DNA of 32,000 bases from positions 1,170,001 to 1,202,000 of the forward strand of contig NZ_LN831024.1 of NCBI RefSeq assembly GCF_001457615.1, written 5' to 3'. A model generated the notes under the pieces. It saw only the letters and a program-made list of their open reading frames with translations, made no database searches and was not told the DNA's origin. This stretch comes from Pseudomonas aeruginosa. GTDB lineage: Bacteria; Pseudomonadota; Gammaproteobacteria; Pseudomonadales; Pseudomonadaceae. The first letter of the stretch is position 1, and every line of letters starts with the position of its first letter. The translations under genes were made by a program, and so were the position numbers. Shown piece by piece: positions 4,660-20,570 of this stretch.

Positions 4660-5545
4660 GCGGCGGTTGCTCGGCCTGGTAGCGCCGGGCCTCCTCGCGC
4701 AGCCAGTCGGCGAAGGCCTGGTGGCGGTCGCTCGGCGGCTCGCGCTGCGGCCAGACCAGCCAGTAGGGATAGGGGTAGGGCACGCGGATGTCGCCCAGTT
4801 GCACCAGGCGGCCCTCGGCGAGGGCGCCGGCGACCAGGCTGCGACGCTCCAGGGCGATGCCCTGGCCCAGGCGCACGGCTTCCAGCAGCAGGTTCGAGTC
4901 ATTGATCAGCAGTCCGTGCTGCGGTTCCGCCACGCCGGCGCGCTGGCACCAGAGCGCCCAGGATTCGGTGGAGCGCAGTGTAGGGCAGGCGACGATCTCG
5001 CTCGGCGTGCGCGGCAGGCGGCCGCCGTTGAAGTCGGGCGCGGCGACCATCAGCAACTCGTCGTCGAACAGGCGTTCCCGACCGACCCCTTCCCAGTCGC
5101 CCTTGCCGATGCGTACGCCGAGGTCGGCCAGGCCCTGGCGCAGGTTCTGCACGTCAAGACTGGCCACCAGCCGCACGCGACAGTGCGGATGGCGCTCGCG
5201 AAAGCGCGGCAGGCGCGGCAGCAGCCAGTTCAGGCCGAAGGACGGCATCACCGTGACCACCAGCTCACCCTCCCGTGGACGCGCCCGCACCACCCGCGTG
5301 GCGTCGGCGATCTCGCCCAGCGAGGCGCGTACCTGCAGGGCGTAGAACCGGCCGTTCTCGCTCAGGCGCAGGCCGCGCCCCTCGCGGACGAACAGGGCCA
5401 GGCCGAGGAGGTTTTCCAGCAGCTTGATCTGCTGGCTGATCGCTGAGTGGGTGACGTGCAGCTCGCTGGCGGCCTGGCTGATGCTGCCGAGCCGGGCGAC
5501 CGCTTCGAAGCTGCGCAGGGCGGTGAGGGGAGGGAGGTCGCTCAT
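4649..5545 (-). CDS. LysR-family transcriptional regulator (GcvA-like)
   Basis: 298 aa. The N-terminal wHTH is 'LTALRSFEAVARLGSISQAASELHVTHSAISQQIKLLE'. It is divergent from the GST gene. Confidence 0.9.
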   Translation of the reverse strand: MSDLPPLTALRSFEAVARLGSISQAASELHVTHSAISQQIKLLENLLGLALFVREGRGLRLSENGRFYALQVRASLGEIADATRVVRARPREGELVVTVMPSFGLNWLLPRLPRFRERHPHCRVRLVASLDVQNLRQGLADLGVRIGKGDWEGVGRERLFDDELLMVAAPDFNGGRLPRTPSEIVACPTLRSTESWALWCQRAGVAEPQHGLLINDSNLLLEAVRLGQGIALERRSLVAGALAEGRLVQLGDIRVPYPYPYWLVWPQREPPSDRHQAFADWLREEARRYQAEQPPLSE

Positions 5546-5562
5546 GTAAGTTTTTCTAAAGG

Positions 5563-5573
5563 ATTCGCTGAAT
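5563..5573. promoter_or_regulatory. candidate LysR-type operator dyad in the divergent promoter region
   Basis: ATTCgctGAAT inverted repeat lies in the 123-bp AT-richer gap between the LysR gene (start 5545, -) and the GST gene (start 5669, +). Confidence 0.25.
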
Positions 5574-5668
5574 TTATCTCGATATTTTTCGCGTTGTGCA
5601 ACGACTAGAGTGATTTTCCCAGGCGTCGCCCTCTTAGCGGCGCTTAATCATCGACAAAGGATGCCGCG

Positions 5669-6280
5669 ATGCAACTGATCGGTATGCTGGATTCGCCTTT
5701 TGTGCGCCGGGTCGCCATCGCCCTGCGCCTGCTGGACCTGCCCTACGAGCACCGGCCGCTGTCGGTGTTCCGCAATTTCCAGGCGTTCAGCCTGTTCAAC
5801 CCGATGGTCAAGGCGCCCACGCTGGTGCTGGACGATGGCACCGTGCTGATGGACTCCAGCCTGATCCTCGATTACCTGGAGTGCCTGGCCGGCCGCGAAC
5901 GCAGTCTGCTGCCGCAACGGCCGCAGGCCCGTGCACGGGCGCTGAGTCTGATCGGTGCGGCGCTGGTGGCCTGCGAGAAATCCGTGCAGATCTACTACGA
6001 ACTGAACCTGCGTCCCGAGGAACGCCGCCATGGCCCCTGGCTGGAGCGGGTGGAGGGGCAGTTGCTGGCGGCCTACGACTGGCTGGAGGCAGCGCTGCGC
6101 CAGGAGCCGCTGGCACGCGACGGCGGCATCGAGCTGGTCGGGGTGACTGTTGCAGTGGCCTGGCGCTTCAGCCAACTGGTGGTCGCGGAGCGGGTCGCCG
6201 CCAGCGAATACCCGGAACTGGCAAGCTATTCGGATTATGCGGAAGGGTTGCCGGTGTTCCTCGAGACGCCGCCGGTCTGA
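5669..6280 (+). CDS. glutathione S-transferase family protein
   Basis: 203 aa. The thioredoxin-like N-domain 'MQLIGMLDSPFVRRVAIALRLLDLPYEHRPLSVF...VKAPTLVLDDGTVLMDSSLILDYLE' is typical of GSTs. Confidence 0.85.
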   Translation: MQLIGMLDSPFVRRVAIALRLLDLPYEHRPLSVFRNFQAFSLFNPMVKAPTLVLDDGTVLMDSSLILDYLECLAGRERSLLPQRPQARARALSLIGAALVACEKSVQIYYELNLRPEERRHGPWLERVEGQLLAAYDWLEAALRQEPLARDGGIELVGVTVAVAWRFSQLVVAERVAASEYPELASYSDYAEGLPVFLETPPV

Positions 6281-6595
6281 GCCCGCGAGGGGCCAGGCTG
6301 GCGCCCCTCGAACGGCTCGATTCCGCCTGCGCCCGGCCTCGGTTCGCTGCAGGTCGCTGCCGTCGTCACGGCCCGGACCGGTTGTTGCGAACTGCTGTTC
6401 GGCGCCGGCCTGGAGGCGGCCCGGCCCTGGCTCAGCCTGGTCCTGAGCGCGGCCCTCGGCTTGCTCTTCGGCATGCTGCTGGGCGGGCTCTGGTTCGGCT
6501 ACTGGATCCGCCAGGAGGGATTGCAACTGACCCACCTGCTGCTGGTGGTCTGGGTGCTGGCGAACTTCTTCGTGCTCAACGTCCGCTGGAACTGA
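6281..6595 (+). CDS. probable small two-TM membrane protein; start codon unresolved (open frame given)
   Basis: Frame 2 is open from the GST stop to TGA 6593-6595. By my count 77 of 83 codons (6347-6595) end in G/C. It encodes two hydrophobic helices (PWLSLVLSAALGLLFGMLLGGLWFGYWI; LTHLLLVVWVLANFFVL). The first canonical starts are only TTG 6461 and ATG 6473, and neither has an SD. Confidence 0.45.
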   Translation, partial: AREGPGWRPSNGSIPPAPGLGSLQVAAVVTARTGCCELLFGAGLEAARPWLSLVLSAALGLLFGMLLGGLWFGYWIRQEGLQLTHLLLVVWVLANFFVLNVRWN

Positions 6596-6815
6596 TGGGG
6601 ACTGCCGGTACGAGGAGCAGGGCGCGAGGACGGCGACAGTGGAGCGAGCCGGACGCCCGTCGATAGCGCGAAGTCGCATCTCGCTCCTGCCACCCGATCC
6701 CTCGGCTCCCCTCTGTTCGCACGCGCTGCATGGGCTGACGCAGTTGGAACTGCCCCCGGGCAGTGGCAGCCGGCTGCCTCGAGGGCAGGTGCTCCGGCTG
6801 GCTCGGCATGGTCAC
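6576..6815 (-). CDS. hypothetical Arg-rich 79-aa ORF downstream of spcS (doubtful)
   Basis: GTG 6815 overlaps (GTGA) the stop of a 16-codon mini-ORF that has an AAGGAG SD directly after spcS. Codon bias is only moderate: about 57 of 77 codons end in G/C. Confidence 0.25.
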   Translation of the reverse strand: MTMPSQPEHLPSRQPAATARGQFQLRQPMQRVRTEGSRGIGWQERDATSRYRRASGSLHCRRPRALLLVPAVPISSSGR

Positions 6816-6885
6816 TGGAGTTCAGCCCCGGGGTTCTTCGAGGAAAGCAGAACCTGCGGCATCGGCTCCTTTCGCCCGACTGGGC

Positions 6886-7236
6886 TCAGCGCAGCTCTTC
6901 GGCGGCGGCGACCAGTTGTTCGAGTTGATGGTGGATCTGGGCCCTGTCCAGCAACTGCAAGGGCTGGCGGTTCCAGAGCAGCCGTTCGCCGCTTTCGGGG
7001 TCGCGGCCCAGGATCGGCTTGCAAGGGTCCTGGCTGAACAGGTTCTGCTCGCTGGCCGTAGCGTCTCCTTGTCCTTCCAGGCGGGTGAACATCAACAGAT
7101 GATCGGTCGGATGTTCTGCCAGATGGCAGAGATGCGGGCCCACCTGCAGGCTGAGTACGCTCTCCTCGTCATTGGGCGTCGGGAGATCGAGAGCGAGAAA
7201 AAGCTGGTGGATGGCGGCGCGGTAGAGTGGATTCAT
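6886..7236 (-). CDS. spcS: type III secretion chaperone for ExoS/ExoT (SpcS, Orf1)
   Basis: Track ORF 6886..7266. ATG 7236 gives a 116-aa protein starting MNPLYRAAIHQLFLALDLP. It is divergent from exoS, as in the known locus. Confidence 0.9.
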   Translation of the reverse strand: MNPLYRAAIHQLFLALDLPTPNDEESVLSLQVGPHLCHLAEHPTDHLLMFTRLEGQGDATASEQNLFSQDPCKPILGRDPESGERLLWNRQPLQLLDRAQIHHQLEQLVAAAEELR

Positions 7237-7308
7237 GGCGTGTTCCGAGTCACTGGAGGCGGCCATTAGAGCAGTGCCAGCCCGGAGAGACTGTTAATCG
7301 TGGTTCTC

Positions 7309-7316
7309 TTTTTTTA
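7309..7316 (-). promoter_or_regulatory. ExsA box (TNAAAANA) of the spcS promoter
   Basis: The minus strand reads TAAAAAAA, followed 12 nt later by a TTAACA -35-like hexamer. It is about 75 nt upstream of the spcS ATG. The GnC element is not evident. Confidence 0.55.
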
Positions 7317-7339
7317 GGTTTTGCCGCTGCCGATTCCAG

Positions 7340-7392
7340 TGAAAAAACGGCGGCCAATCCTGATAGGCGATGGGGTTTCCCGTTCCTAGACT
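7340..7392 (+). promoter_or_regulatory. ExsA-dependent exoS promoter
   Basis: Elements are TGAAAAAA (7340-7347, TNAAAANA box), GGC (7352-7354, GnC), TGATA (7361-7365, TGnnA/-35-like), a 21-nt spacer, and TAGACT (7387-7392, -10-like). The unusual 21-22 bp spacing is a known trait of ExsA promoters. Confidence 0.75.
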
Positions 7393-7423
7393 GGCGGAGA
7401 AACATCAGGAGAAGGCAACCATC

Positions 7424-8785
7424 ATGCATATTCAATCGCTTCAGCAGAGTCCGTCTTTCGCCGTCGAATTGCACCAGGCCGCCAGTGGGCGTTTGGGACA
7501 GATTGAGGCCCGCCAGGTCGCCACCCCCAGTGAAGCGCAGCAGTTGGCCCAGCGCCAGGACGCGCCGAAGGGTGAGGGGCTGCTCGCTCGCCTGGGCGCG
7601 GCGCTCGTGCGTCCCTTCGTGGCGATCATGGACTGGCTGGGCAAACTGTTGGGCTCCCACGCCCGCACCGGGCCGCAGCCCAGTCAGGACGCGCAGCCTG
7701 CGGTCATGTCCTCGGCCGTCGTGTTCAAGCAGATGGTGCTGCAGCAGGCATTGCCCATGACCTTGAAGGGACTCGACAAGGCGAGCGAGCTGGCGACCCT
7801 GACACCGGAAGGACTGGCCCGGGAGCACTCCCGCCTGGCCAGCGGAGATGGGGCGCTGCGTTCGCTGAGCACCGCCTTGGCCGGCATTCGTGCCGGCAGC
7901 CAGGTCGAGGAGTCCCGTATCCAGGCTGGCCGCCTGCTCGAACGGAGCATCGGCGGGATCGCGCTGCAGCAGTGGGGCACCACCGGCGGTGCCGCGAGTC
8001 AACTGGTGCTCGACGCAAGCCCGGAACTGCGGCGCGAAATCACCGACCAGTTGCATCAGGTAATGAGCGAGGTCGCACTGTTGCGCCAAGCGGTAGAGAG
8101 CGAGGTCAGCAGAGTATCGGCCGACAAGGCGCTGGCGGATGGCCTGGTGAAGCGGTTCGGGGCGGATGCGGAAAAGTACCTGGGCAGACAGCCTGGTGGC
8201 ATCCACAGTGACGCCGAAGTGATGGCGCTTGGTCTCTACACCGGCATTCACTACGCGGACCTGAATCGCGCTCTGCGTCAGGGGCAGGAGCTGGATGCGG
8301 GACAAAAGCTGATCGACCAAGGTATGTCCGCGGCCTTCGAGAAGAGCGGACAGGCTGAACAGGTAGTGAAGACTTTCCGTGGCACCCGTGGCGGGGATGC
8401 CTTCAACGCCGTGGAAGAGGGCAAGGTTGGCCACGACGACGGCTATCTCTCCACCTCCCTGAACCCCGGTGTCGCGAGGAGCTTCGGGCAGGGCACGATA
8501 TCCACCGTGTTCGGCAGGTCCGGAATCGATGTCAGCGGGATATCGAACTACAAGAATGAAAAAGAGATTCTCTATAACAAAGAGACCGACATGCGCGTGC
8601 TGCTGAGCGCCAGCGATGAGCAGGGAGTGACCCGCCGGGTCCTCGAAGAGGCGGCCCTGGGGGAGCAGAGTGGCCATAGCCAGGGACTGCTCGATGCTCT
8701 CGACCTGGCAAGCAAACCGGAACGTTCAGGCGAGGTCCAGGAACAGGATGTACGCCTGAGGATGCGTGGCCTTGATCTGGCCTGA
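7424..8785 (+). CDS. exoS: type III secreted effector exoenzyme S (RhoGAP + ADP-ribosyltransferase)
   Basis: Translation from ATG 7424 gives 453 aa starting MHIQSLQQSPSFAVELHQ. GAP Arg146 (GDGALRSLS), ADPRT Glu379/Glu381 (NEKEILY), the 14-3-3 binding motif DALDL 424-428 and the membrane-localisation segment (LLARLGAALVRPFVAIMDWLGKLLG) are all present. Confidence 0.97.
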   Translation: MHIQSLQQSPSFAVELHQAASGRLGQIEARQVATPSEAQQLAQRQDAPKGEGLLARLGAALVRPFVAIMDWLGKLLGSHARTGPQPSQDAQPAVMSSAVVFKQMVLQQALPMTLKGLDKASELATLTPEGLAREHSRLASGDGALRSLSTALAGIRAGSQVEESRIQAGRLLERSIGGIALQQWGTTGGAASQLVLDASPELRREITDQLHQVMSEVALLRQAVESEVSRVSADKALADGLVKRFGADAEKYLGRQPGGIHSDAEVMALGLYTGIHYADLNRALRQGQELDAGQKLIDQGMSAAFEKSGQAEQVVKTFRGTRGGDAFNAVEEGKVGHDDGYLSTSLNPGVARSFGQGTISTVFGRSGIDVSGISNYKNEKEILYNKETDMRVLLSASDEQGVTRRVLEEAALGEQSGHSQGLLDALDLASKPERSGEVQEQDVRLRMRGLDLA

Positions 8786-8812
8786 CCGGTCGTAAAAGAA
8801 AGACGTCACGAA

Positions 8813-8838
8813 CGGACACCTTGGGGTGTCCGATTCTT
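8813..8838. terminator. hairpin between convergent exoS and rlmF
   Basis: cggacacc (8813-8820) pairs with ggtgtccg (8825-8832) around a ttgg loop, followed by attctt. Confidence 0.5.
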
Positions 8839-8874
8839 GGCTCGGCAGCGGATCTGGGTGGAGAGGCGTGCTGG

Positions 8875-9885
8875 CTATTCGCCCAGTGGTTCCAGGAGGG
8901 CTGCTGTCCAGCGCTCCTTGCGCCAGGCCCGGCGCTGCTTCTTGTCGAGGTAGGTCCAGGCGACGAAGCGGCTCTGCTTCTGTCCCTGGGCCATGTCCAC
9001 CACGCGGATATCGCTGGCGCCCAACGTCTTCAGGCGCTCCTGGAGGTTCGGCAGGTTGCTCGCCTTGGATACCAGGGTGGTGAACCAGAACACCTGCGTG
9101 GCGAACGCCCGGCTTTCCTCGGCCATGCCGGCCAGGAAGGCCGCTTCGCCGCCCTCGCAGTACAGCTCGGCGCCCTGGCCGCCAAAGTTCAGTAGCGGCA
9201 GGGTACGGGTCGGGTCGAGCTTGCCGAGGTTCTTCCACTTGCGCCGGCTGCCGCGCGTGGCTTCGTCCAGCGAGGCGTGGAAGGGCGGGTTGCAGAGGGT
9301 CATGTCGAAGCGCTCATCGACGCCGATCAGGCCCTGGAATATCTGCCTGCGATCAGGCTGCCGGCGCAACTCGATGGCAGCGGCGAAGCGTGGGTTGGCG
9401 GCGAGGATCGCAGCGGCCGAGGCCAGCGATTGCGGGTCGATGTCGGCGCCGACGAAGCGCCAGCCGTATTCGTGGTGGCCGAGCAGCGGGTAGATGCAGT
9501 TGGCTCCGGTTCCGACGTCCAGCGCACGCAGGCCGGGACCGCGTGGAATCAGGCCATCGTGGCTGGCGCCGAGCAGGTCGGCCAGGTAGTGCAGGTAGTC
9601 GGCGCGACCGGGAATGGGCGGGCACAGGTAACCATCGGGTATATCCCACTCGCGTACGTCGTAGAACTGTTGCAGCAGCGCGCGGTTGAAGGCTTTCACC
9701 GCCGCCGGATCGGCGAAGTCGATGCTCTGCCTGCCGTACGGATTGAGGATGACGAAGCGCTCCAGTTCCGGGCTGCCGGCGATCAGGCGCGGAAAGTCGT
9801 AGCGTCCCAGGTGGCGATTGCGCGGGTGCAGCGGGCTGGCGCTCTTGCGCTCGGCGTCGGGATGCGGGCTGGTCGGGCGGGGCAT
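8875..9885 (-). CDS. rlmF: 23S rRNA (adenine1618-N6)-methyltransferase RlmF
   Basis: '[17 protein letters not shown]...[18 protein letters not shown]' aligns with the E. coli RlmF N-terminus, and the SAM-MTase motif '[16 protein letters not shown]' is present. The start is ambiguous: ATG 9885 (chosen) or GTG 9924. Confidence 0.85.
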
Positions 9886-9976
9886 GTTCTCGGTTTCCGT
9901 GACGGCGAGGCGGGCATTATTCACATCCGCCGGAGGCTGGCCAGTGTTTCTGCCGAGCGGCGCGCTCCTGGCCCGG

Positions 9977-11809
9977 TCACAATGGAAACAGCCACGGAAT
10001 CACCAGCACGCAGACGAACATCACCAGCAGGGTAAATGGCACGCCGATCCGGACGAAGTCTCCGAAGCGGTATTGGCCAGGGCCCAGCACCAGGGTGTTC
10101 ACCGGCGAGGAAATCGGCGTCATGAAGGCTGCCGAGGCCGCCACCGCCACCACCATGGCGAAGGGGTAGGGCGAGGCGCCGATCTGCTTGGCGGTGGCGA
10201 TGGCGATCGGCGCCATCAGCACCGCGGTAGCGGTGTTGGAGATGAACAGGCCGATGGCCGCGGTGAGCAGGAACAGGCTGGCCAGCAGCACGCGCGGGCC
10301 GGCGTCGCCGAGGGCGTCGACCAGCAGCGAGACCACCAGGTCGATACCGCCGGTCTTCTGCAGGGCCAGGGCGAAGGGCAGCATGCCGACGATCAGGACC
10401 AGGCTTTGCCAATGGATGGCGCGGTAGGCGCCGTCCATGTCGATGCAACGGAACAGGCCCATCAACAGGCAGCCGACCAGTGCCGCGACCACGTTGGGCA
10501 CCACCCCGCTGACCATCAGCGCCACCATCACGGCCAGGCTGAGCAGGGCGTGCGGCGCCTTGCTCAGGGCCGGCGCCACCTCGTCGATCTCCGCCGGCAG
10601 GCTGAGCACCAGGAAATCGCGGTTGCGTCCCTGCAACTGGCGGATCGCCTTCCAGGCGCCGATCACCAGCAGGGTATCGCCCAGGCGCAGCTTCTCTTCC
10701 AGCATGCCGTCGGTGAGCGCTTCGTGGTCGCGACGCAGGCCGACCACGTTGAGCCCGTACTGCGAACGGAAGCCCAGTTCCAGGACGCTCTTGCCGAGCA
10801 GGGTGGAGTCCGGCGGCAGAGTCACCTCGGCCATGCCGACCTCCCGCGACTGGTCGATGAAGTAGCTGGCGCGGAACGGCAGGCGCACCAGGTTCAGCTC
10901 GGCGCAGCGCCGGTCCATGTCCTCCGGAGGGGCGAAGACGTCCAGCAGCAACACGTCGCCCGCCTTCAGCTCGGTGCTGCCGCCGACCTTGACCACCTCG
11001 CTGTGGAACTTGCGTACCCGCTCCAGGCCGACCACGTTGGCGCCCAGGCGGGTGCGCAGTTGCAGTTCTTCCAGGGTGCTGCCGATCAACGGCGAGCCGA
11101 GCTGGACCTGCAGGCGCCGTTCGCGGCCGGCCAGGCGATAGTCGCGGATCAGGTCGCGCAGGGTCCGCCGTGCCTTCGGCGCGCCGACTTCCGCCGGGCT
11201 GGCGGCGTTCAGCCAGTTGCGCGTGAGCAGCATGTAGGCCACGCCGATGGCGAGCACCATGAGGCCTATCGGGGTGAAGGCGAAGAAGCCGAAGCCGGCA
11301 TGACCCTCGCGCGCCAGCTCGCTGTTGACCACCATGTTCGGTGGCGTGGCGACCAGGGTCATCATGCCGCTGATCAGTCCGGCGAAGGCCAGCGGCATCA
11401 TCAGCCGGCCCGGAGGGATCTTCAGCTTGGCGGCGATGCTCAGGACCACCGGGATGAAGATCGCCACCACCCCGGTGGAACTCATCACCGAGCCCAACCC
11501 GGCCACCGCCAGCATCAGCAGTACCAGCAGGCGCGCTTCGCTGCTGCCGGCGCGGGCGATCAGCCAGTCGCCGACCTGGTAGGCCACCCCGGTACGCACC
11601 AGGCCTTCGCCGATCACGAACAGCGCGGCGATCAGTATCACGCTGGGATCGCTGAAGCCGGCCAGGGCTTCGTTGAGGGTAAGGGTTCCGCTGACGCTGA
11701 AGGCCATGATCACCAGCAGGGCGATCACGTCCAGGCGCAGGCGGTTGTGGATGAAGAGGGCGACGGTGGTGGCGAGCAGGCCGACCACCCAGAGCAGTTC
11801 GAGGTTCAT
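9977..11809 (-). CDS. SLC13/DASS-family anion permease with two central TrkA-C domains (sodium:sulfate symporter-like)
   Basis: 610 aa. Hydrophobic N- and C-halves flank a soluble insert ([12 protein letters not shown]...; [12 protein letters not shown]...), which is typical of TrkA-C-containing SLC13 permeases. Confidence 0.85.
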
Positions 11810-11927
11810 GCGGGCATCTGAGCGGGAGGATGCCTGCGAGTGTGGCAGACGGACGCGGATCGCGCCTTGATCTGCTGCAGGTCGACGGCGCCTCCCCGCT
11901 TCGCCGCGGAGAGGCGCCGCGGCCCTG

Positions 11928-12722
11928 TCAGCCGAGGAGGAGGGCGTCGTCGGCGAGCTTCTCGCCGCGCACCTTCTCGAACATCGCCAGCAGGTCCGGT
12001 ACGTCGAGGCCCTTGCGTTGCTCGCCGGAGACGTCCAGCACCACCTGGCCCTGGTGCAGCATCACCGTGCGCTCGCCCACGTCCAGCGCCTGGCGCATGC
12101 TGTGGGTGACCATCATGGTGGTGAGTTTCTTCTCGGCGACGATCCGTGCGGTGAGATGCAGGACGAAGTCGGCGGTGCGCGGGTCGAGCGCCGCGGTGTG
12201 TTCGTCGAGCAACAGGATACGCGACGGCTGCAGCGCCGCCATCAGCAGGCTGACGGCCTGGCGCTGGCCGCCGGAGAGCAGGCCGATGCGGTCGCCGAGG
12301 CGGTTCTCCAGGCCGAGGCCGAGGGTCGCCAGGCTTTCCCGGAAACCGTCGCGCATCGATGCCTGCACCGCCCTGCCGAGGCCGCGACCGGCACCGCGAC
12401 GCTGCGCCAGGGCCATGTTCTCCTCGATGGTGAGGTCCTCGCAGGTACCCGCCATGGGGTCCTGGAACACCCGCGCGACGCGGTTGGCGCGGGCCCAGAC
12501 CGGCTTGCGGGTGACGTCTTCGTCGTCGATCAGGATCTGCCCGCTGTCGATCGGCAGGTCGCCGGAGACTGCGTTGAGGAAGGTCGACTTGCCGGCGCCG
12601 TTGGAGCCGATCACGGTGACGAACTGGCCGGCCGGGATGTCCAGCGACAGGCCGCGCAGGGCGCGGGTCTCGATGGGGGTGCCGGGGTTGAAGGTGATCT
12701 TCAGGTTCTTCGCGCTGAGCAT
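11928..12722 (-). CDS. ABC transporter ATP-binding protein
   Basis: True start is ATG 12722 ([11 protein letters not shown]). Walker A is GSNGAGKST, the signature is LSGGQRQ, and Walker B is [12 protein letters not shown]. The long upstream extension in the track ORF is not coding. Confidence 0.9.
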
Positions 12723-12724
12723 GG

Positions 12725-13615
12725 TCAGGCTCCCTTCTTGCCGAGCAGGCGTTTCTTCATCATCGGAATCACCAGGGCGACGGTGACCAGCACCGCGGTG
12801 ACCAGGTTCAGGTCTTGGGCCTGCAAGCCGATGAAATCGCTGTTCAGCGCCAGGGCGATGAAGAAGCGGTAGACGATGGCACCGAGGATCACCGCGAGGG
12901 TCGCCAGGATCAGCCGGCGCGAGGGCAGGATGCTCTCGCCGACGATCACCGCCGCCAGGCCGATGACGATGGTGCCGATACCCATGGAGATATCGGCGCC
13001 GCCCTGGGTCTGCGCGAACAGCGCGCCGGCCAACGCCACCAGCGCGTTGGAGATGGCCATGCCGAGCAGGATCATGCCGCCGGTGTTGACCCCCTGGGCA
13101 CGGGCCATCCGCGGGTTGGAGCCGGTGGCGCGGATCGCCAGGCCTTTCTGGGTGGTGAAGAACCAGTCCAGCAGCAGCTTCGCGGCGATCACGATGAACA
13201 CCAGCAGCAGCGGGCGGAACACGTAGTCGCTGAGCCATTCCGGCTGCAGCAGGGTGAACAATGTCGGCTCGGCGATCAGCGGTACGTTGGGCTTGCCCAT
13301 GATGCGCAGGTTGATCGAGTAGAGCGCGATCATCATCAGGATGCTGGCGAGCAGGTCCATGATCTTCAGCTTGACGTTGAGCAGGCCGGTGGCCAGCCCG
13401 GCCAGTGCACCGGCGGCGGTGGCCGCCAGGGTCGCGCTGTACGGGTCCCAGCCAAGGGCGATGAGGGTCGCGCAGACCGCGCCGCCGAGCGGGAAGCTGC
13501 CGTCCACCGTGAGGTCGGGGAAGCGCAGCAGGCGGAAGGAGATGAATACGCCGAGTGCCACGAGGCTGAAGATCAGGCCGATCTCCAGGGCACCGAACAG
13601 GGAAAACAGAGACAT
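12725..13615 (-). CDS. ABC transporter permease
   Basis: 296 aa, polytopic and hydrophobic. It ends 2 nt before the ATPase start. Confidence 0.9.
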   Translation of the reverse strand: MSLFSLFGALEIGLIFSLVALGVFISFRLLRFPDLTVDGSFPLGGAVCATLIALGWDPYSATLAATAAGALAGLATGLLNVKLKIMDLLASILMMIALYSINLRIMGKPNVPLIAEPTLFTLLQPEWLSDYVFRPLLLVFIVIAAKLLLDWFFTTQKGLAIRATGSNPRMARAQGVNTGGMILLGMAISNALVALAGALFAQTQGGADISMGIGTIVIGLAAVIVGESILPSRRLILATLAVILGAIVYRFFIALALNSDFIGLQAQDLNLVTAVLVTVALVIPMMKKRLLGKKGA

Positions 13616-13657
13616 GACTTCGTAACCGAGTGCGTGAAGGCAGGATTATCGTGCCGT

Positions 13658-13686
13658 CCGGCCACGGGCGGGACGCCCGCGGCCGG
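13658..13686 (-). other. intercistronic GC-rich stem-loop in the ABC operon
   Basis: 12-bp stem with one mismatch (13658-13669 pairs with 13675-13686) and a 5-nt loop. It lies in the 83-nt gap between the binding-protein stop and the permease start. Confidence 0.5.
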
Positions 13687-13698
13687 CGGCCGCTTTTT

Positions 13699-14676
13699 TT
13701 ACTTGATGACTTCCGCGGCCGACTTGAGCAGTTCGTCGGACAGGGTCACGCCTTGCTTCTGCGCGGCCCCGGGATTGACGAACAGCTGCAGGTTGTCGCT
13801 GGTCTCCGGCTTGATCTCGCCCGGCTTCTCGCCCTTGAGGATGCGCACCACCATGCGGCCGGTCTGCTTGCCCATCTCCTTGTAGTTGATGCCGAGGGCG
13901 GCGATGGCGCCGCGCTTGACGCTGTCGGTGTCGGAGGCGATCAGCGGGATCTTCGCGTCGTTGCCGACCTTGACCAGCGCCTCGTAGGCGGACACCACGT
14001 TGTTGTCGGTGTTGGTGTAGATCGCGTCGACCTTGCCGACCAGGCTGCGCGCCGCCGAGCTGACGTCCACCGAACGCGGTGCCGAGGCTTCGACCAGGCT
14101 CAGGCCCATCTTCGGCAGCAGTTCCTTCAGCTCCTTGACCACCACCACGGAGTTGGCTTCGCCCGGGTTGTAGACCATGCCGATGCGCTTGGCGCCCGGC
14201 ACCACTTTCTTGATCAGCTCGATCTGCTTGTCCAGCGCGAGCATGTCGGAAACCCCGGTGACGTTGGTGCCGGAGGCTTCCCAGCTCGGCGTCAGGTGCG
14301 CGCCGACCGGGTCGGTGACGGTGCTGAAGACGATCGGGATGCTCTTGGTCGCGGCCACCAGCGCCTGGGCCGACGGAGTGGCGATGCCGACGATCACGTC
14401 GGGCTTGTCGCCGATGAACTTGCGGGCGATCTGCGCGGCGGTGCCGGTGTTGCCCTGGGCGCTCTGGTACTGCCACTTGAGGTTCTTGCCGTCTTCGTAG
14501 CCGGCCTCCTGGAGGGCCTCCTTGACCCCGTCGCGAGCGGCGTCCAGCGCCGGGTGCTCGACGATGGCGGTCACGGCCACCGACTTCTGCTCTTCGGCGT
14601 TGGCGCCGAAGGACAGGGCCATGCCAAGGGCCAGGGCACTGAGGGGCAACCATTTATTCTTATAGGCCTGCATCAT
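13699..14676 (-). CDS. ABC transporter periplasmic substrate-binding protein (ABC_sub_bind/BMP-like family)
   Basis: ATG 14676 is preceded by AGGAG. The signal peptide is MMQAYKNKWLPLSALALGMALSFGANA. It is the first gene of the 3-gene importer operon. Confidence 0.9.
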   Translation of the reverse strand: MMQAYKNKWLPLSALALGMALSFGANAEEQKSVAVTAIVEHPALDAARDGVKEALQEAGYEDGKNLKWQYQSAQGNTGTAAQIARKFIGDKPDVIVGIATPSAQALVAATKSIPIVFSTVTDPVGAHLTPSWEASGTNVTGVSDMLALDKQIELIKKVVPGAKRIGMVYNPGEANSVVVVKELKELLPKMGLSLVEASAPRSVDVSSAARSLVGKVDAIYTNTDNNVVSAYEALVKVGNDAKIPLIASDTDSVKRGAIAALGINYKEMGKQTGRMVVRILKGEKPGEIKPETSDNLQLFVNPGAAQKQGVTLSDELLKSAAEVIK

Positions 14677-15146
14677 GCGGCGATCTCCTGATTGTATTGG
14701 CGCGCTGTAGCGAATTGTTCTGATTGGGCGGTGCGGGTACAGCGTGGCCGAAACATCGCATTTTTCGCGCAAGTCGTCAGCAGGTTTGATGTTTTTTCTT
14801 GCGGTGGGATTACCGCTGGGGGGCAAGGGGGAGTGCCTGCCTTTGCGAAAATTCGATGAGGGCCCGCGTGGCCTCCGAACAGAAGGTCATCGGTTTCGAG
14901 CCCAACCAAAGATATGTGGCCAATTGATGGCCTTGTGGTACACGTCTCCCGAGTTGCAAGGACGCGTACCGCACCGCCTGCCTGGGAGCGGTGCTTTGCG
15001 CCCGGTCTGCGTGCCTGCCATGGGGGTGGGCTCTGGGGGATGCATGGTGGGGCGTTGGAGTGCGTGGATCGTCGCCGTGGCGATCTGTCTCATGGTCGGG
15101 GACGCGACCGCCGCTGGCTGGCGTTCGGCAAACTTCCGTGTCTATA

Positions 15147-15512
15147 GCGGCGCAGGCCTACAACCGTTACTCCTATGGCTGGAATAATCCGATCGCCAGT
15201 GTGGATCCGACAGGGTATGCGTTGGAGGAGATTTCTTCGTCCAAAAGTTGGTACTCGCCAGTTATTGATAATAGTTGGTTGTTCTTGAGCAACTTGTGGA
15301 TGGGGAATGGTCCGGAAAGTGGCTTCGAATTTAGCCTGGGCATTTTAAAAGGAGGGCTATCCTTTTCTCAGTCTATGTCATGGGTCAATCCAGTTGCCGG
15401 AGGTGTTCAATATCTTTCGAATAACTGGGCTTCTCAAGCTATTTGGGGTGAAGGGTTTAGTGAGTTAATATCTTATAAAAATATCGATCAGTGCTGGCGG
15501 TGGCTTGTTTGA
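15147..15512 (+). pseudogene. orphan Rhs-family fragment: end of the RHS core (…AYNRYSYGWNNPIASVDPTGY) plus the N-terminal half of the variable toxin tip; no start codon or SD
   Basis: Frame 0 is part of track ORF 14991..15512. The NxYxYxxNNPxxxxDPxG motif lies at 15159-15218. The G+C drop begins here. The upstream part of the ORF (14991-15146) is W/R/G-rich non-coding-looking sequence. The frame ends at TGA 15510-15512 after an A5 run. Confidence 0.55.
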
Positions 15513-16041
15513 TGTTGGCAGTGTCTTTCTTCCTGTCGGGCGCGCAATAGTTTCTGTAGGTTTTGACTTTATGTTCGGGGCCGTCTCGGGAGCGGAGCGC
15601 GGTCTAGGAGGGCGTGGTGGCCATAAATATGCTGCTGGTATACTTTCTGGGGGTAGTGGGAAAGCGTTCGCAGGGCACGGTAAATATGTTTTCGGTAGCG
15701 GGGATTTTTGGGTGCCTGATGGGCCGTACATAACTCTTCCAAGGCCTGGAATTAATATTCTGGATGAAACCGGTCGATTTATTGAATTGGGTGATTGGGC
15801 TGGTTTGGCGCAGGCTGCAAAAATTAATCCGAGACTTGCAGGTGATATTGAAGGCATGGCTACTTATTTGCCGCGTGCTGAGATTCCTAACTATACTCTA
15901 AGTGCTCCAGCTGCTAGAGGTCCAGCATTGCATATCGATGGAAACTCAACGACTGTTGAGTTCAGTACCCCCTTGGAAAAACTATTACAGCTTGGGATGG
16001 GATGCGTGCAGTGGGCTGCTTGTACAACATTTGCGAGGTAG
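15505..16041 (+). CDS. C-terminal toxin-tip domain of unknown function (GHG … WAAC), probably the frameshifted continuation of the preceding fragment
   Basis: The track ORF uses a TTG start without an SD. Frame 1 is already open from 15469. Removing one A from the A5 run 15477-15481 fuses the two frames (…ELISYK-ISISAGGGLFDVGSVF…). It ends at TAG 16039-16041, 7 nt before the next gene. Confidence 0.55.
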   Translation: MFDVGSVFLPVGRAIVSVGFDFMFGAVSGAERGLGGRGGHKYAAGILSGGSGKAFAGHGKYVFGSGDFWVPDGPYITLPRPGINILDETGRFIELGDWAGLAQAAKINPRLAGDIEGMATYLPRAEIPNYTLSAPAARGPALHIDGNSTTVEFSTPLEKLLQLGMGCVQWAACTTFAR

Positions 16042-16048
16042 GTGATTT

Positions 16049-16492
16049 ATGTATTTCCCAGACATGTCTTTTTATTCGTATTTTCTTTTGAGGCCGTTAG
16101 GTAGTGTAAGAAACATAGGTTGGTTAGGAAGAGGGCAGCAGTACTCCAGGGGGCGGGTAAGTTCTGGATTGCTTGATAAATTGAAGTTGATAATTATGTC
16201 GGAGGGGGCGGTTGATTTCCACGTTAATAGAGTAATGAGCGCACATGAGTGTGTAGTCGCTGGATGTCGGGATTTGTTCGTGGGAGATGTTGGTTTGGGT
16301 TTTTCTGAAATATGGATTCCTGGAGTTGAGAAAGGAGCATATTTTGCATCTCCTTCGTTGATACTTCATTATATTGAAGAGCATGATTATTGCCCTCCAC
16401 AGATGTATTCGGAGGCGGTGATGGCTGTTGATTTGGAAATTGGCTATAAAGCCCAGGAGGTATATGTGGGGCTTGTGGCTGGCCATTTTTAG
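16049..16492 (+). CDS. candidate cognate immunity protein
   Basis: 147 aa. The ATG is 7 nt after the toxin stop, with GAGG/AGGTGA upstream. It has the same low-GC, T-rich codon style. The motif is 'YFASPSLILHYIEEHDYCPPQMYSEAV'. Confidence 0.55.
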   Translation: MYFPDMSFYSYFLLRPLGSVRNIGWLGRGQQYSRGRVSSGLLDKLKLIIMSEGAVDFHVNRVMSAHECVVAGCRDLFVGDVGLGFSEIWIPGVEKGAYFASPSLILHYIEEHDYCPPQMYSEAVMAVDLEIGYKAQEVYVGLVAGHF

Positions 16493-16696
16493 ATTTATCG
16501 AGTCTTGCGGTTATTAGGTCTGTTCCAACCTATTGATAAGATTCTTCTGAAAGTTTTTCAGGCTTTAAGGGCCAAGCTAGGGTTCTTTGTCAATGAGGGG
16601 CTGGAAGGTTATGGGGAGGTCGGTCAGAAAAAGCATAAGTTTTTTTGGTTCAGTCAGGAAGTATGACGTGAAGGTTGAGCACCAGAGAGGGATGTG

Positions 16697-17080
16697 ATGG
16701 CTGATTTTGAATATTATACTAAAGGTGATATGGCGCTACGGTGTAATTCAGAAGGGTTGTGGTATTTGTCCGTGGGGGATCAGGTTTTTTTTCTCCAGGA
16801 GGAAGAGAGTTTTTGGAGGGTTCTGGTTTTATTGGAGAAACCTTACGAAGAGGTTAGGGAAAAGCTTGGGCGGGGATTTTGTTACTTAAATGTTGTTTTG
16901 GTGGGACTAGATAGTGAGTCTGACTACTGGATTGGTTTGGCACTTTCTTGGATAGAGCAAGGAGGAGCAGAAGCCAGTGATCTACTACTAGCACGCTTGA
17001 AGGGGGTGGTTGAGGGGCGGAGCGCCAATCAAAAAAACAGGCATAAAGCTTTTTCAGTATTGAGAAAAATAGGTGGGTAA
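16697..17080 (+). CDS. second small immunity-like protein (orphan)
   Basis: 127 aa from ATG 16697 (the track starts at GTG 16694), with GAGAGGGA upstream. The ATG overlaps the stop (TGATG) of a 37-codon remnant ORF at 16587-16697. Composition is low GC. Confidence 0.45.
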   Translation: MADFEYYTKGDMALRCNSEGLWYLSVGDQVFFLQEEESFWRVLVLLEKPYEEVREKLGRGFCYLNVVLVGLDSESDYWIGLALSWIEQGGAEASDLLLARLKGVVEGRSANQKNRHKAFSVLRKIGG

Positions 17081-17320
17081 CTACTTGTGTATTGGTTTTT
17101 CTAAAAGCATAGTTGCTTTAGTTGGTTGATAGAGCGGGTTTTTAAGTTTTTGCAGTGAGTGTTGTTATTGTGTTTTTTTGTTATGGCTGGTTTGAAACTT
17201 TTTGTTGGTGTTTTCTGTTTCTAGATTTAAGACGGTTTCTATGGCCAGGATACTGATTTTTTAGTGGGGTGGTGAAGAAATGCTTTGTATATCGTTGAAA
17301 AATGGCATTTAGGAGGTTAT

Positions 17321-17671
17321 ATGGGCAAGAGAGTGGTTGTATTGCTATGGCTGCTATTCACATCAATGTCAGCCCACGCCATCGATAAAAAAGTCAACAA
17401 CGTTACCATCATGCGCGTGGGCTTCATGGTGGACGCGAATTCTCCGGGTGGAGGCTGGGGCTGCATCGTCAGCAAGCCGGGAGCGGCGGATTGCGGCTTT
17501 GGCCTGATGCGCCTGCCGCCGATGAATACCGATGCCGGCAAGGCCATGCTGTCGCTGATGCTGAGCGCCCAGGCCACACAGAACAAACTGCCGGAGATCG
17601 CCTATTCGGCCAGCGCCACGGTGAACGCGGTATGCCAGATCACTTCGGCGCAGATAGACAGCGGCGCCTGA
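17321..17671 (+). CDS. small secreted hypothetical protein (PA3835-like)
   Basis: AGGAGG (17311-17316) precedes ATG 17321. The signal peptide is MGKRVVVLLWLLFTSMSAHA|IDKK. The mature part contains 3 Cys residues. Confidence 0.7.
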   Translation: MGKRVVVLLWLLFTSMSAHAIDKKVNNVTIMRVGFMVDANSPGGGWGCIVSKPGAADCGFGLMRLPPMNTDAGKAMLSLMLSAQATQNKLPEIAYSASATVNAVCQITSAQIDSGA

Positions 17672-17678
17672 GGGGAGA

Positions 17679-17706
17679 AAGGTACGAGGCCGCAGCCCCG
17701 TACCTT
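17679..17706. terminator. hairpin between convergent PA3835-like gene and valS
   Basis: aaggtacg (17679-17686) pairs with cgtacctt (17699-17706), and there is an inner ggc/gcc stem. No strong U-run. Confidence 0.4.
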
Positions 17707-17717
17707 GGCGAGAGTGC

Positions 17718-20570
<2,853 letters not shown>

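Follow-up and report, generated by a model that had tools for sequence, protein, structure and literature searches.

The rhsT/PAGI-9 locus of Pseudomonas aeruginosa: probable wreck of its main Rhs toxin gene

We analysed 32,000 nucleotides (nt) of Pseudomonas aeruginosa DNA (assembly GCF_001457615.1, contig NZ_LN831024.1, positions 1,170,001 to 1,202,000 of the forward strand; this whole stretch is referred to as the window and supplies all coordinates) in which an AT-rich islet with remains of an Rhs-type toxin lies at around 15150 to 17320. A sequence-only reading had taken this islet for an orphan toxin-immunity array, whereas our comparisons indicate that it is very probably the wreck, in situ, of the main Rhs toxin gene at the locus known as rhsT/PAGI-9. 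As judged by alignment, the window is an L104-type allele (an rhs gene ending in a Stv toxin tip) minus 5,771 bp: window positions 5000-15152 match locus L104 at 99.5% identity and positions 15150-17901 match it at 97.5%, and 5,771 bp of L104 are absent between the two blocks. The parts of the wreck, all on the plus strand, are as follows.

15044..15187, plus strand: remnant of the rhs 5' end, an ATG (15044) plus 36 codons (MVGRWSAWIVAVAICLMVGDATAAGWRSANFRVYSG), resembling a Sec signal and collinear with the N-termini of L104 and L091
15150..15152, plus strand: deletion junction with a GCG microhomology (3 nt), at which 5,771 bp of the rhs body are gone
15153..15218, plus strand: end of the RHS repeat-associated core (QAYNRYSYGWNNPIASVDPTGY), matching TIGR03696 positions 55-75 of 76 and sharing 88-90% of its nucleotides with the end of the rhsT core
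15219..15512, plus strand: linker that precedes the toxin in the tip (YALEEISS...KNIDQ), interrupted after 15490 by the loss of 2 nt, without a Pfam match
15505..16041, plus strand: open reading frame (ORF) of 178 amino acids (aa) with a Stv-type toxin domain (PF21527, E 2.5e-8), its frame being +1 with respect to the end of the core
16049..16492, plus strand: DUF7919 gene (PF25535, E 3e-29), probable Stv immunity gene
16659..16697, plus strand: stub of a displaced Ntox43 (RhsT-type) tip, the last 12 codons and the stop (..KYDVKVEHQRGM, then stop), identified by its match to L093
16697..17080, plus strand: gene for a 127-aa protein, probable Ntox43/RhsT immunity gene, whose start overlaps the rhsT-Ntox43 stop in L093, L109 and L112

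The junction can be read to the nucleotide (breakpoints marked here by a slash). The left parent runs ...TATAGCGGCG/ACTACAA (in the longer read, ...GTCTATAGCGGCG/ACTACAATGGC), the right parent runs ...CCAATGCG/CAGGCCTACAAC (in the longer read, ...GGCCAATGCG/CAGGCCTACAAC), and the window reads ...TATAGCGGCGCAGGCCTACAAC across the join (in the longer read, ...GTCTATAGCGGCGCAGGCCTACAAC). The same junction was found in all ten window-type genomes sampled. Since 5,771 is not a multiple of three, the rhs start was fused out of frame to what follows: past codon 36 the remnant, compared with the 2,246-aa Rhs protein of L104 and the 1,692-aa ORF of L091, is out of frame and ends at the TAA at 15185-15187. 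The statement that no start codon lies upstream of the toxin fragment does not hold, as the ATG of rhs and 36 codons are retained. No uninterrupted frame leads from this start codon to the toxin tip, the frame being broken both at the junction (15150-15152) and by the 2-nt deletion after 15490.

The proposal that the islet begins with the end of an Rhs core was confirmed by a profile search, in which AQAYNRYSYGWNNPIASVDPTGY matched the tail of TIGR03696 (positions 55-75 of 76, E 6e-4), and by the DNA of this segment, which is 88-90% identical to the core end of the full-length rhs genes at the locus. Since nothing but the tail of the domain is left, the score of 20 bits stays under the cut-off of 32.5 bits. 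Profile searches found no YD/RHS repeats in the window, and no second rhs gene is present elsewhere in it; the shell is present in the allelic loci L104, L107, L109, L112 and L091.

To follow the site across strains, we used two samples. The first comprised 10 genomes anchored on the exact PA3835 protein and is linked to the window haplotype; the impression that it gave of a near-universal islet (10/10 genomes) was discarded as the product of a biased sample, anchoring on the ATP-binding cassette (ABC) substrate-binding protein (SBP) having yielded five other alleles. In the SBP-anchored sample the flanks are 99.4-99.65% identical to the window in P. aeruginosa versus 95.6-96.9% in P. paraeruginosa. 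The alleles are the following.

Allele 0: only a 137-aa DUF2007 gene, about 499 bp, with breakpoints at 14822/14823 and 17717/17718 (L012, L103/L105/L106/L108/L111, likewise P. paraeruginosa ATCC 9027)
Allele 1: rhs with an Ntox43 tip (2,255 or 2,339 aa), 127-aa gene, 116-aa gene (L109, L112, L093)
Allele 2: rhs with a Stv tip (2,246 aa), DUF7919, 127-aa gene, 116-aa gene (L104)
Allele 3: rhs with a third tip, 99-aa gene, 116-aa gene (L107, L091)
Allele 4: the window type
Allele 5: decayed, with a 140-aa FG-GAP fragment, a 99-aa gene and a 127-aa gene (L110, 6284-8599)

The presence of the empty-site allele in P. aeruginosa genomes with flanks 99.4-99.65% identical to the window bears out the prediction that the islet is accessory, and it rules out that the segment is fixed in P. 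aeruginosa sensu stricto. The claim that the islet lies far from any rhs main gene proved wrong: a main gene fills the very same site in L104, L107, L109, L112 and L091. On the contig that encodes P0009 (L091), for instance, a full-length rhs with FG-GAP, TcdB_toxin_midN, RHS repeat and YD-shell domains sits between the SBP gene and the 116-aa gene beside valS. This L091 rhs is split into ORFs of 1,692 and 518 aa by a frameshift at 10001-10017, which may be a sequencing error or decay. L110 decayed independently, so rhs at this site has been destroyed more than once.

The locus has a history in the literature. PAGI-9 of P. aeruginosa consists of a single large rhs ORF, rhsT, located between PA3835 and PA3836 of PAO1 (PMC4243448), with a length of 6,581 bp (PMC7809047); the RhsT toxin domain is the type example of Ntox43 (PMC3482391). 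By synteny, the islet lies between the orthologues of PA3835 and PA3836. The ORFs of the islet belong to this named locus, and to that extent they are part of an already characterised system. The RhsT allele has 6,572 bp in place of 1,506 bp of the window, and this difference fits the length of PAGI-9 and is therefore consistent with PAO1 carrying the window-type allele. The argument that PAO1 leaves no room for these ORFs is contradicted by a report of an "intergenic region" of about 2.2 kb between PA3835 and PA3836, which most strains have with sequence variation, which is used as a neutral insertion site and which showed no transcription in the authors' unpublished RNA sequencing (RNA-seq) (PMC4921012).

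These comparisons bear on the alternative that the islet is a strain-specific set of displaced orphan cassettes, remote from its rhs gene, on which a main rhs elsewhere in the genome draws for recombination. Such an array would explain why homology begins at the core end, why the fragment lacks a usable start codon and has immunity-type genes after it, why one module (the Ntox43 stub and the 127-aa gene) is truly displaced, and why the locus is accessory. Against it stand the ATG and 36 codons of a main gene directly upstream, the full-length alleles at the same site, the apparent presence of the allele in PAO1 (PMC4921012) and the lack of any other rhs in the 32-kb window. The first module (15147-16492) is not a displaced separate copy but is collinear with L104 on both sides of the deletion. 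With the array largely refuted by L104, we consider it improbable; what stands of it is an Rhs-derived tip, immunity-type genes and a displaced second module, and what falls is the orphan status of the first module, which is the main gene's own tip.

In the tip, the single ORF of about 290 codons initially assumed here is in fact two, with reading frames of 15138/14991-15512 and then 15505-16041, the frame shifting after 15490: intact alleles (P0001-P0004, L104) read ...KNIDQRAGGGLFDVGS where the window has GATCA--GTGCTGG, the deleted nucleotides being GC, and the deletion is visible against both L092 and L104. A homologue search with the repaired tip recovered intact P. aeruginosa versions, and also versions (P0003, P0009 and P0011) joined to a real Rhs core (...DIVYQDTANAQAYNRYSYGWNNP...). 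DPxG is followed by a linker of about 95 aa (15219-15600; YALEEISS...DQRAGGGLFDVGS) that three alleles, each with a toxin domain unrelated to the others, have in common at roughly 50-60% identity. Relatives of it stand before the different toxin tips of P0009 and P0011, and it may be a pre-toxin or translocation module.

The toxin domain matches PF21527 with 35.1 bits (cut-off 24.2 bits), and its homologues are C-termini of Rhs and filamentous-haemagglutinin proteins. Its AlphaFold model has a predicted local distance difference test (pLDDT) value of about 95 over residues 40-178 and found no fold match in the PDB. In 30 sequences H58 is invariant and C173 is at least 90% conserved, which suggests a His-Cys hydrolase with a CPD/caspase-like dyad, in agreement with the same suggestion in the preprint that defined Stv (10.1101/2022.08.23.504947). 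L092 lacks 1 nt of a C-run in its Stv domain (the place corresponds to window position 15968), which may be a sequencing error or further decay.

The observation that a small gene starts 7 nt past the stop codon of the tip held up exactly (16041 to 16049), so that the toxin tip is directly followed, on its 3' side, by the gene for DUF7919. The same pairing of Stv and DUF7919 recurs in P. protegens with a gap of 3 nt (L098 4001-5020, L099 2939-3958) and in the fused gene calls P0010 and P0159. On these contexts DUF7919 is probably the cognate immunity protein of the Stv toxin; the defining preprint, on a small Shigella plasmid, mentions no immunity partner (10.1101/2022.08.23.504947).

The same matches dispose of the notion that the interval is a non-coding spacer whose ORFs are chance products of AT-rich DNA, as in the original annotation of PAO1. 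That annotation and PMC4921012 do treat the interval as intergenic and silent, and for present-day expression the notion may still apply. As to origin it is refuted by the PF21527, PF25535 and TIGR03696 matches, the high-confidence structure models and the collinearity with the live operon of a 2,246-aa toxin, and as a whole we give it scarcely any credence.

Downstream of DUF7919 lies the relic of an older tip. Window positions 16659-18000 correspond to L093 1161-2502 at 98% identity, where they include the end of an Rhs-Ntox43 ORF (...KYGVKVEHRRGM, then stop); the stub and the 127-aa gene are collinear with L093, L109 and L112. Only 39 nt of the Ntox43 tip (a 13-codon stub) are left in the window, which contains no large rhs ORF with an Ntox43 tip. 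A displaced remnant coupled to a second small gene, as first supposed, thus exists at 16659-16697, although it is not the 53-aa ORF (16505-16666) proposed for it; that ORF has no family match, its frame differs from that of the true stub, and it was rejected as a toxin remnant. A truncated, startless tip kept with its immunity gene 3' of a newer tip is accordingly seen for the second module only, here and in L104. From this arrangement the Stv/DUF7919 module (15150-16658) is judged to have displaced the older Ntox43 tip and left its partner gene behind, and the presence of both modules in L104 implies that the replacement took place with the main gene still whole.

The 127-aa gene is in turn probably the immunity gene for Ntox43/RhsT, a proposal that rests on two contexts. 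First, in L093 the gene (1199-1582) begins with an ATG that overlaps the Ntox43 stop codon. Second, a 41%-identical homologue follows, after 3 nt, a CdiA-type toxin ending in Ntox43 (L095 4001-4396, GCA_019192685.1). That Ntox43 is followed by related genes on two scaffolds (Rhs and CdiA-type) is the usual mark of a cognate immunity protein. For the 127-aa protein 108 remote homologues were found and no Pfam family, and its model has a pLDDT of 94; elsewhere, homologues occur among arrayed small genes where no toxin could be recognised. This pairing contradicts a survey in which Ntox43 toxins are described as having no immunity genes beside them and RhsT is inferred to act on eukaryotic targets (PMC3482391).

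Comparison of the alleles shows the traces of four steps by which the islet would have arisen. First, an rhs cassette would have replaced the small DUF2007 gene between the SBP gene and valS, bringing a Sec-signal/FG-GAP/TcdB-midN/RHS-shell protein with an Ntox43 tip, the 127-aa immunity gene and PA3835. Second, a new module (core end, linker, Stv and DUF7919; 15150-16658) would have recombined at the core end, displacing the Ntox43 tip and reducing it to the 39-nt stub with the old immunity gene. Third, the 5,771-bp deletion at the GCG microhomology would have taken the whole shell and left codon 36 and the core end joined in different frames. Fourth, the 2-nt deletion would have split the tip. 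In the end state the toxin would be neither encapsulated nor exported nor translated from its native start, and the immunity genes, which today follow the former rhs upstream region at a distance of some 1-1.7 kb, may protect against kin with live Stv or Ntox43 alleles while seemingly drifting.

Both lesions (the junction and the 2-nt deletion) are common to the 10 window-type genomes sampled. In a minority of deposited proteins (301-350 aa, e.g. P0001) the deletion junction is present and the frameshift absent, so the large deletion would have preceded the frameshift. With no shell, no in-frame start and a split tip, the toxin is predicted to be dead. Substitution counts in 11 window-type sequences (from strains that differ by less than 1%) point the same way. 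The ratio of nonsynonymous to synonymous changes was 5 to 2 in the N-terminal part of the tip (15138-15512; one of the five is a stop), 7 to 1 in the Stv ORF, 4 to 2 in DUF7919 and 6 to 1 in the 127-aa gene, which is frameshifted in 5 of 10 genomes, and it was 0 to 2 in PA3835. The nonsynonymous excess in all islet ORFs, opposite to PA3835, indicates decay and, for the immunity genes, apparently relaxed constraint.

The Stv ORF itself could be read as half of a toxin-antitoxin-like addiction pair, in which a 178-aa Stv protein made from an internal start is restrained by DUF7919 and the segment is thereby stabilised. The ORF is open in 10 of 10 genomes and contains the whole Stv domain, with DUF7919 following 7 nt on. 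Its TTG start, however, has no ribosome-binding site at proper spacing, nonsynonymous changes prevail in it, no transcription has been reported (PMC4921012), and an open frame is expected by descent among strains less than 1% apart; we regard such a pair as very improbable.

Greater weight, if still well short of conviction, can be given to the possibility that the islet is kept as an immunity island, with DUF7919 and the 127-aa gene selected for protection from neighbours carrying live rhs-Stv or rhsT-Ntox43. Both live alleles circulate in the species (L104, L109, L112), both genes keep Shine-Dalgarno-like sequences, and the toxin-immunity pairings are conserved in other taxa. On the other hand, nonsynonymous exceed synonymous changes in both genes, half of the genomes have a frameshifted 127-aa gene, and the region is reported to be untranscribed in PAO1 (PMC4921012), so that we hold this possible but doubtful.

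Several points weigh against a simple wreck. A full-length DUF7919 is kept by 9 of the 10 window-type genomes in the sample and by most of the cluster members listed (L009 has a 142-aa version, and in the metagenome scaffold L007 no gene was called), and some selection for immunity may therefore still act. The silence of the locus is taken from the literature, namely from another group's unpublished RNA-seq under one condition. PAO1 appears to carry the window-type allele on the strength of published sizes and of the site. Allele frequencies are rough only, the sampling being biased. Finally, it is by parsimony that steps 3 and 4 were put in order and that step 2 was given its direction. The protective role of the immunity genes and the activity of the toxin are likewise putative or drawn from the literature.

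Three further features, again on the plus strand, take in the surroundings of the wreck.

14677..15043, plus strand: G+C-rich region upstream of rhs, divergent from the SBP gene and 99% identical to the region upstream of full-length rhs in L091 and L104
14823..17717, plus strand: whole accessory segment relative to the empty-site (DUF2007) allele, homology to L012 and L103/L105/L106/L108/L111 ending at 14822 and restarting at 17718
17321..17671, plus strand: PA3835-like gene for a 116-aa secreted-looking protein, inside the accessory segment, present with every rhs allele and not in the DUF2007 allele

The abrupt shift in composition noted at the outset is real. Measured in 200-nt windows, the G+C content is about 0.65 outside and 0.35-0.53 inside the span from about 15150 to about 17350; over 15153-17320 it is 44% and in both flanks 65%, and the 60-nt counts given previously (22/60 and 43/60) were exact on recount. 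The islet edges placed at about 15150 and 17320 have to be moved, the edges against the empty allele being 14822/14823 and 17717/17718. The gene order is SBP gene, locus, 116-aa gene, valS. The region at 14677..15043 is presumed to contain the rhs promoter and leader; a scan for promoter and terminator consensus sequences gave no signal above chance. The PA3835-like protein had no family match in profile searches, and its signal peptide (about the first 17 codons) has 11 changes among residues 2-16 in L091 (11899-12249), which places the end of the variable region within the 17321-17671 gene.

A repeat scan found no significant repeats flanking the segment, no ORF or family match for an integrase or transposase was found, so that the marks of a mobile genomic island are missing, no Rfam match and no tRNA target was seen, and a PADLOC scan for defence systems was without match. 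The exoS gene (YopE GAP domain and ADP-ribosyltransferase domains) lies, as the sequence-only reading had it, in the neighbourhood, at 7370-8785 on the plus strand about 6 kb to the left of the islet; in the empty-site strain L105 exoS is missing and its chaperone gene is kept. In a chromatin-immunoprecipitation-sequencing study the "PA3835 promoter" was among the sites co-bound by five unrelated transcription factors (PMC6610081); this promoter region corresponds to the AT-rich relic at window 15150-17320, which might attract diverse binding proteins simply by being AT-rich or might be subject to xenogeneic silencing.

The islet is a well-documented case of known processes at a known variable locus and leaves the understanding of Rhs systems unchanged. 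What it changes is the view of this site: the PA3835-PA3836 interval of PAO1 (here roughly 2.6 kb), treated as neutral and non-coding (PMC4921012), would be a decayed toxin-immunity operon, and PAGI-9 would be no simple insertion but one allele among at least five at a site of tip switching. It also offers candidate immunity proteins for the RhsT/Ntox43 and Stv toxins, the Stv domain having been linked to the success of a Shigella lineage. We give about even odds to the broader proposition that DUF7919 (for Stv) and the 127-aa family (for Ntox43) are the first immunity partners identified for two toxin families currently without any; in that case RhsT would be primarily an interbacterial weapon, and the common PAO1-type strains would carry fossil immunity to two live alleles in circulation within the species. 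RhsT has reportedly been published as an inflammasome-activating virulence factor and is said to lack an immunity gene.

Among the closest known systems is PAGI-9/rhsT of P. aeruginosa PSE9, which shares with the window the chromosomal site, the upstream region, the first 36 codons, the core end, the 127-aa gene and PA3835. What sets the window apart is the loss of the 5.8-kb shell and of nearly all of the Ntox43 tip, the presence of Stv/DUF7919 instead, and two frameshifts; its allele is the PAGI-9-negative one, of the PAO1 type.

Rhs tip displacement and orphan toxin-immunity modules are established at the rhs loci of E. coli and Salmonella. As in these Enterobacteria, a G+C-rich core is followed by an AT-rich tip, a new tip with its immunity gene has recombined at the conserved core end, and an older truncated tip is kept downstream with its immunity gene. 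Unlike there, the main gene was then deleted internally and the leading module is not an orphan, and the protein is of the Sec-signal/FG-GAP/TcdB-midN type, with no PAAR, VgrG or type VI secretion system genes in the window. Tip displacement and orphan modules are covered by a review of polymorphic toxins (PMC3482391). With the Stv domain proteins already described (10.1101/2022.08.23.504947) the tip shares its C-terminal position, the conserved His and Cys and the inferred nature of a secreted toxin domain on Rhs; by contrast, a DUF7919 gene directly follows here and in P. protegens, and the window copy is a pseudogene.

Lastly, the full-length allele resembles the BC components of ABC (Tc) toxins (TcdB-TccC type) in its TcdB_toxin_midN, FG-GAP and RHS-shell domains and in a C-terminal cargo released at the DPxG core end. 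It differs from them in consisting of one polypeptide; no A component turned up in the vicinity, the adjacent immunity genes imply bacterial targets, and the window has kept no part of the shell.

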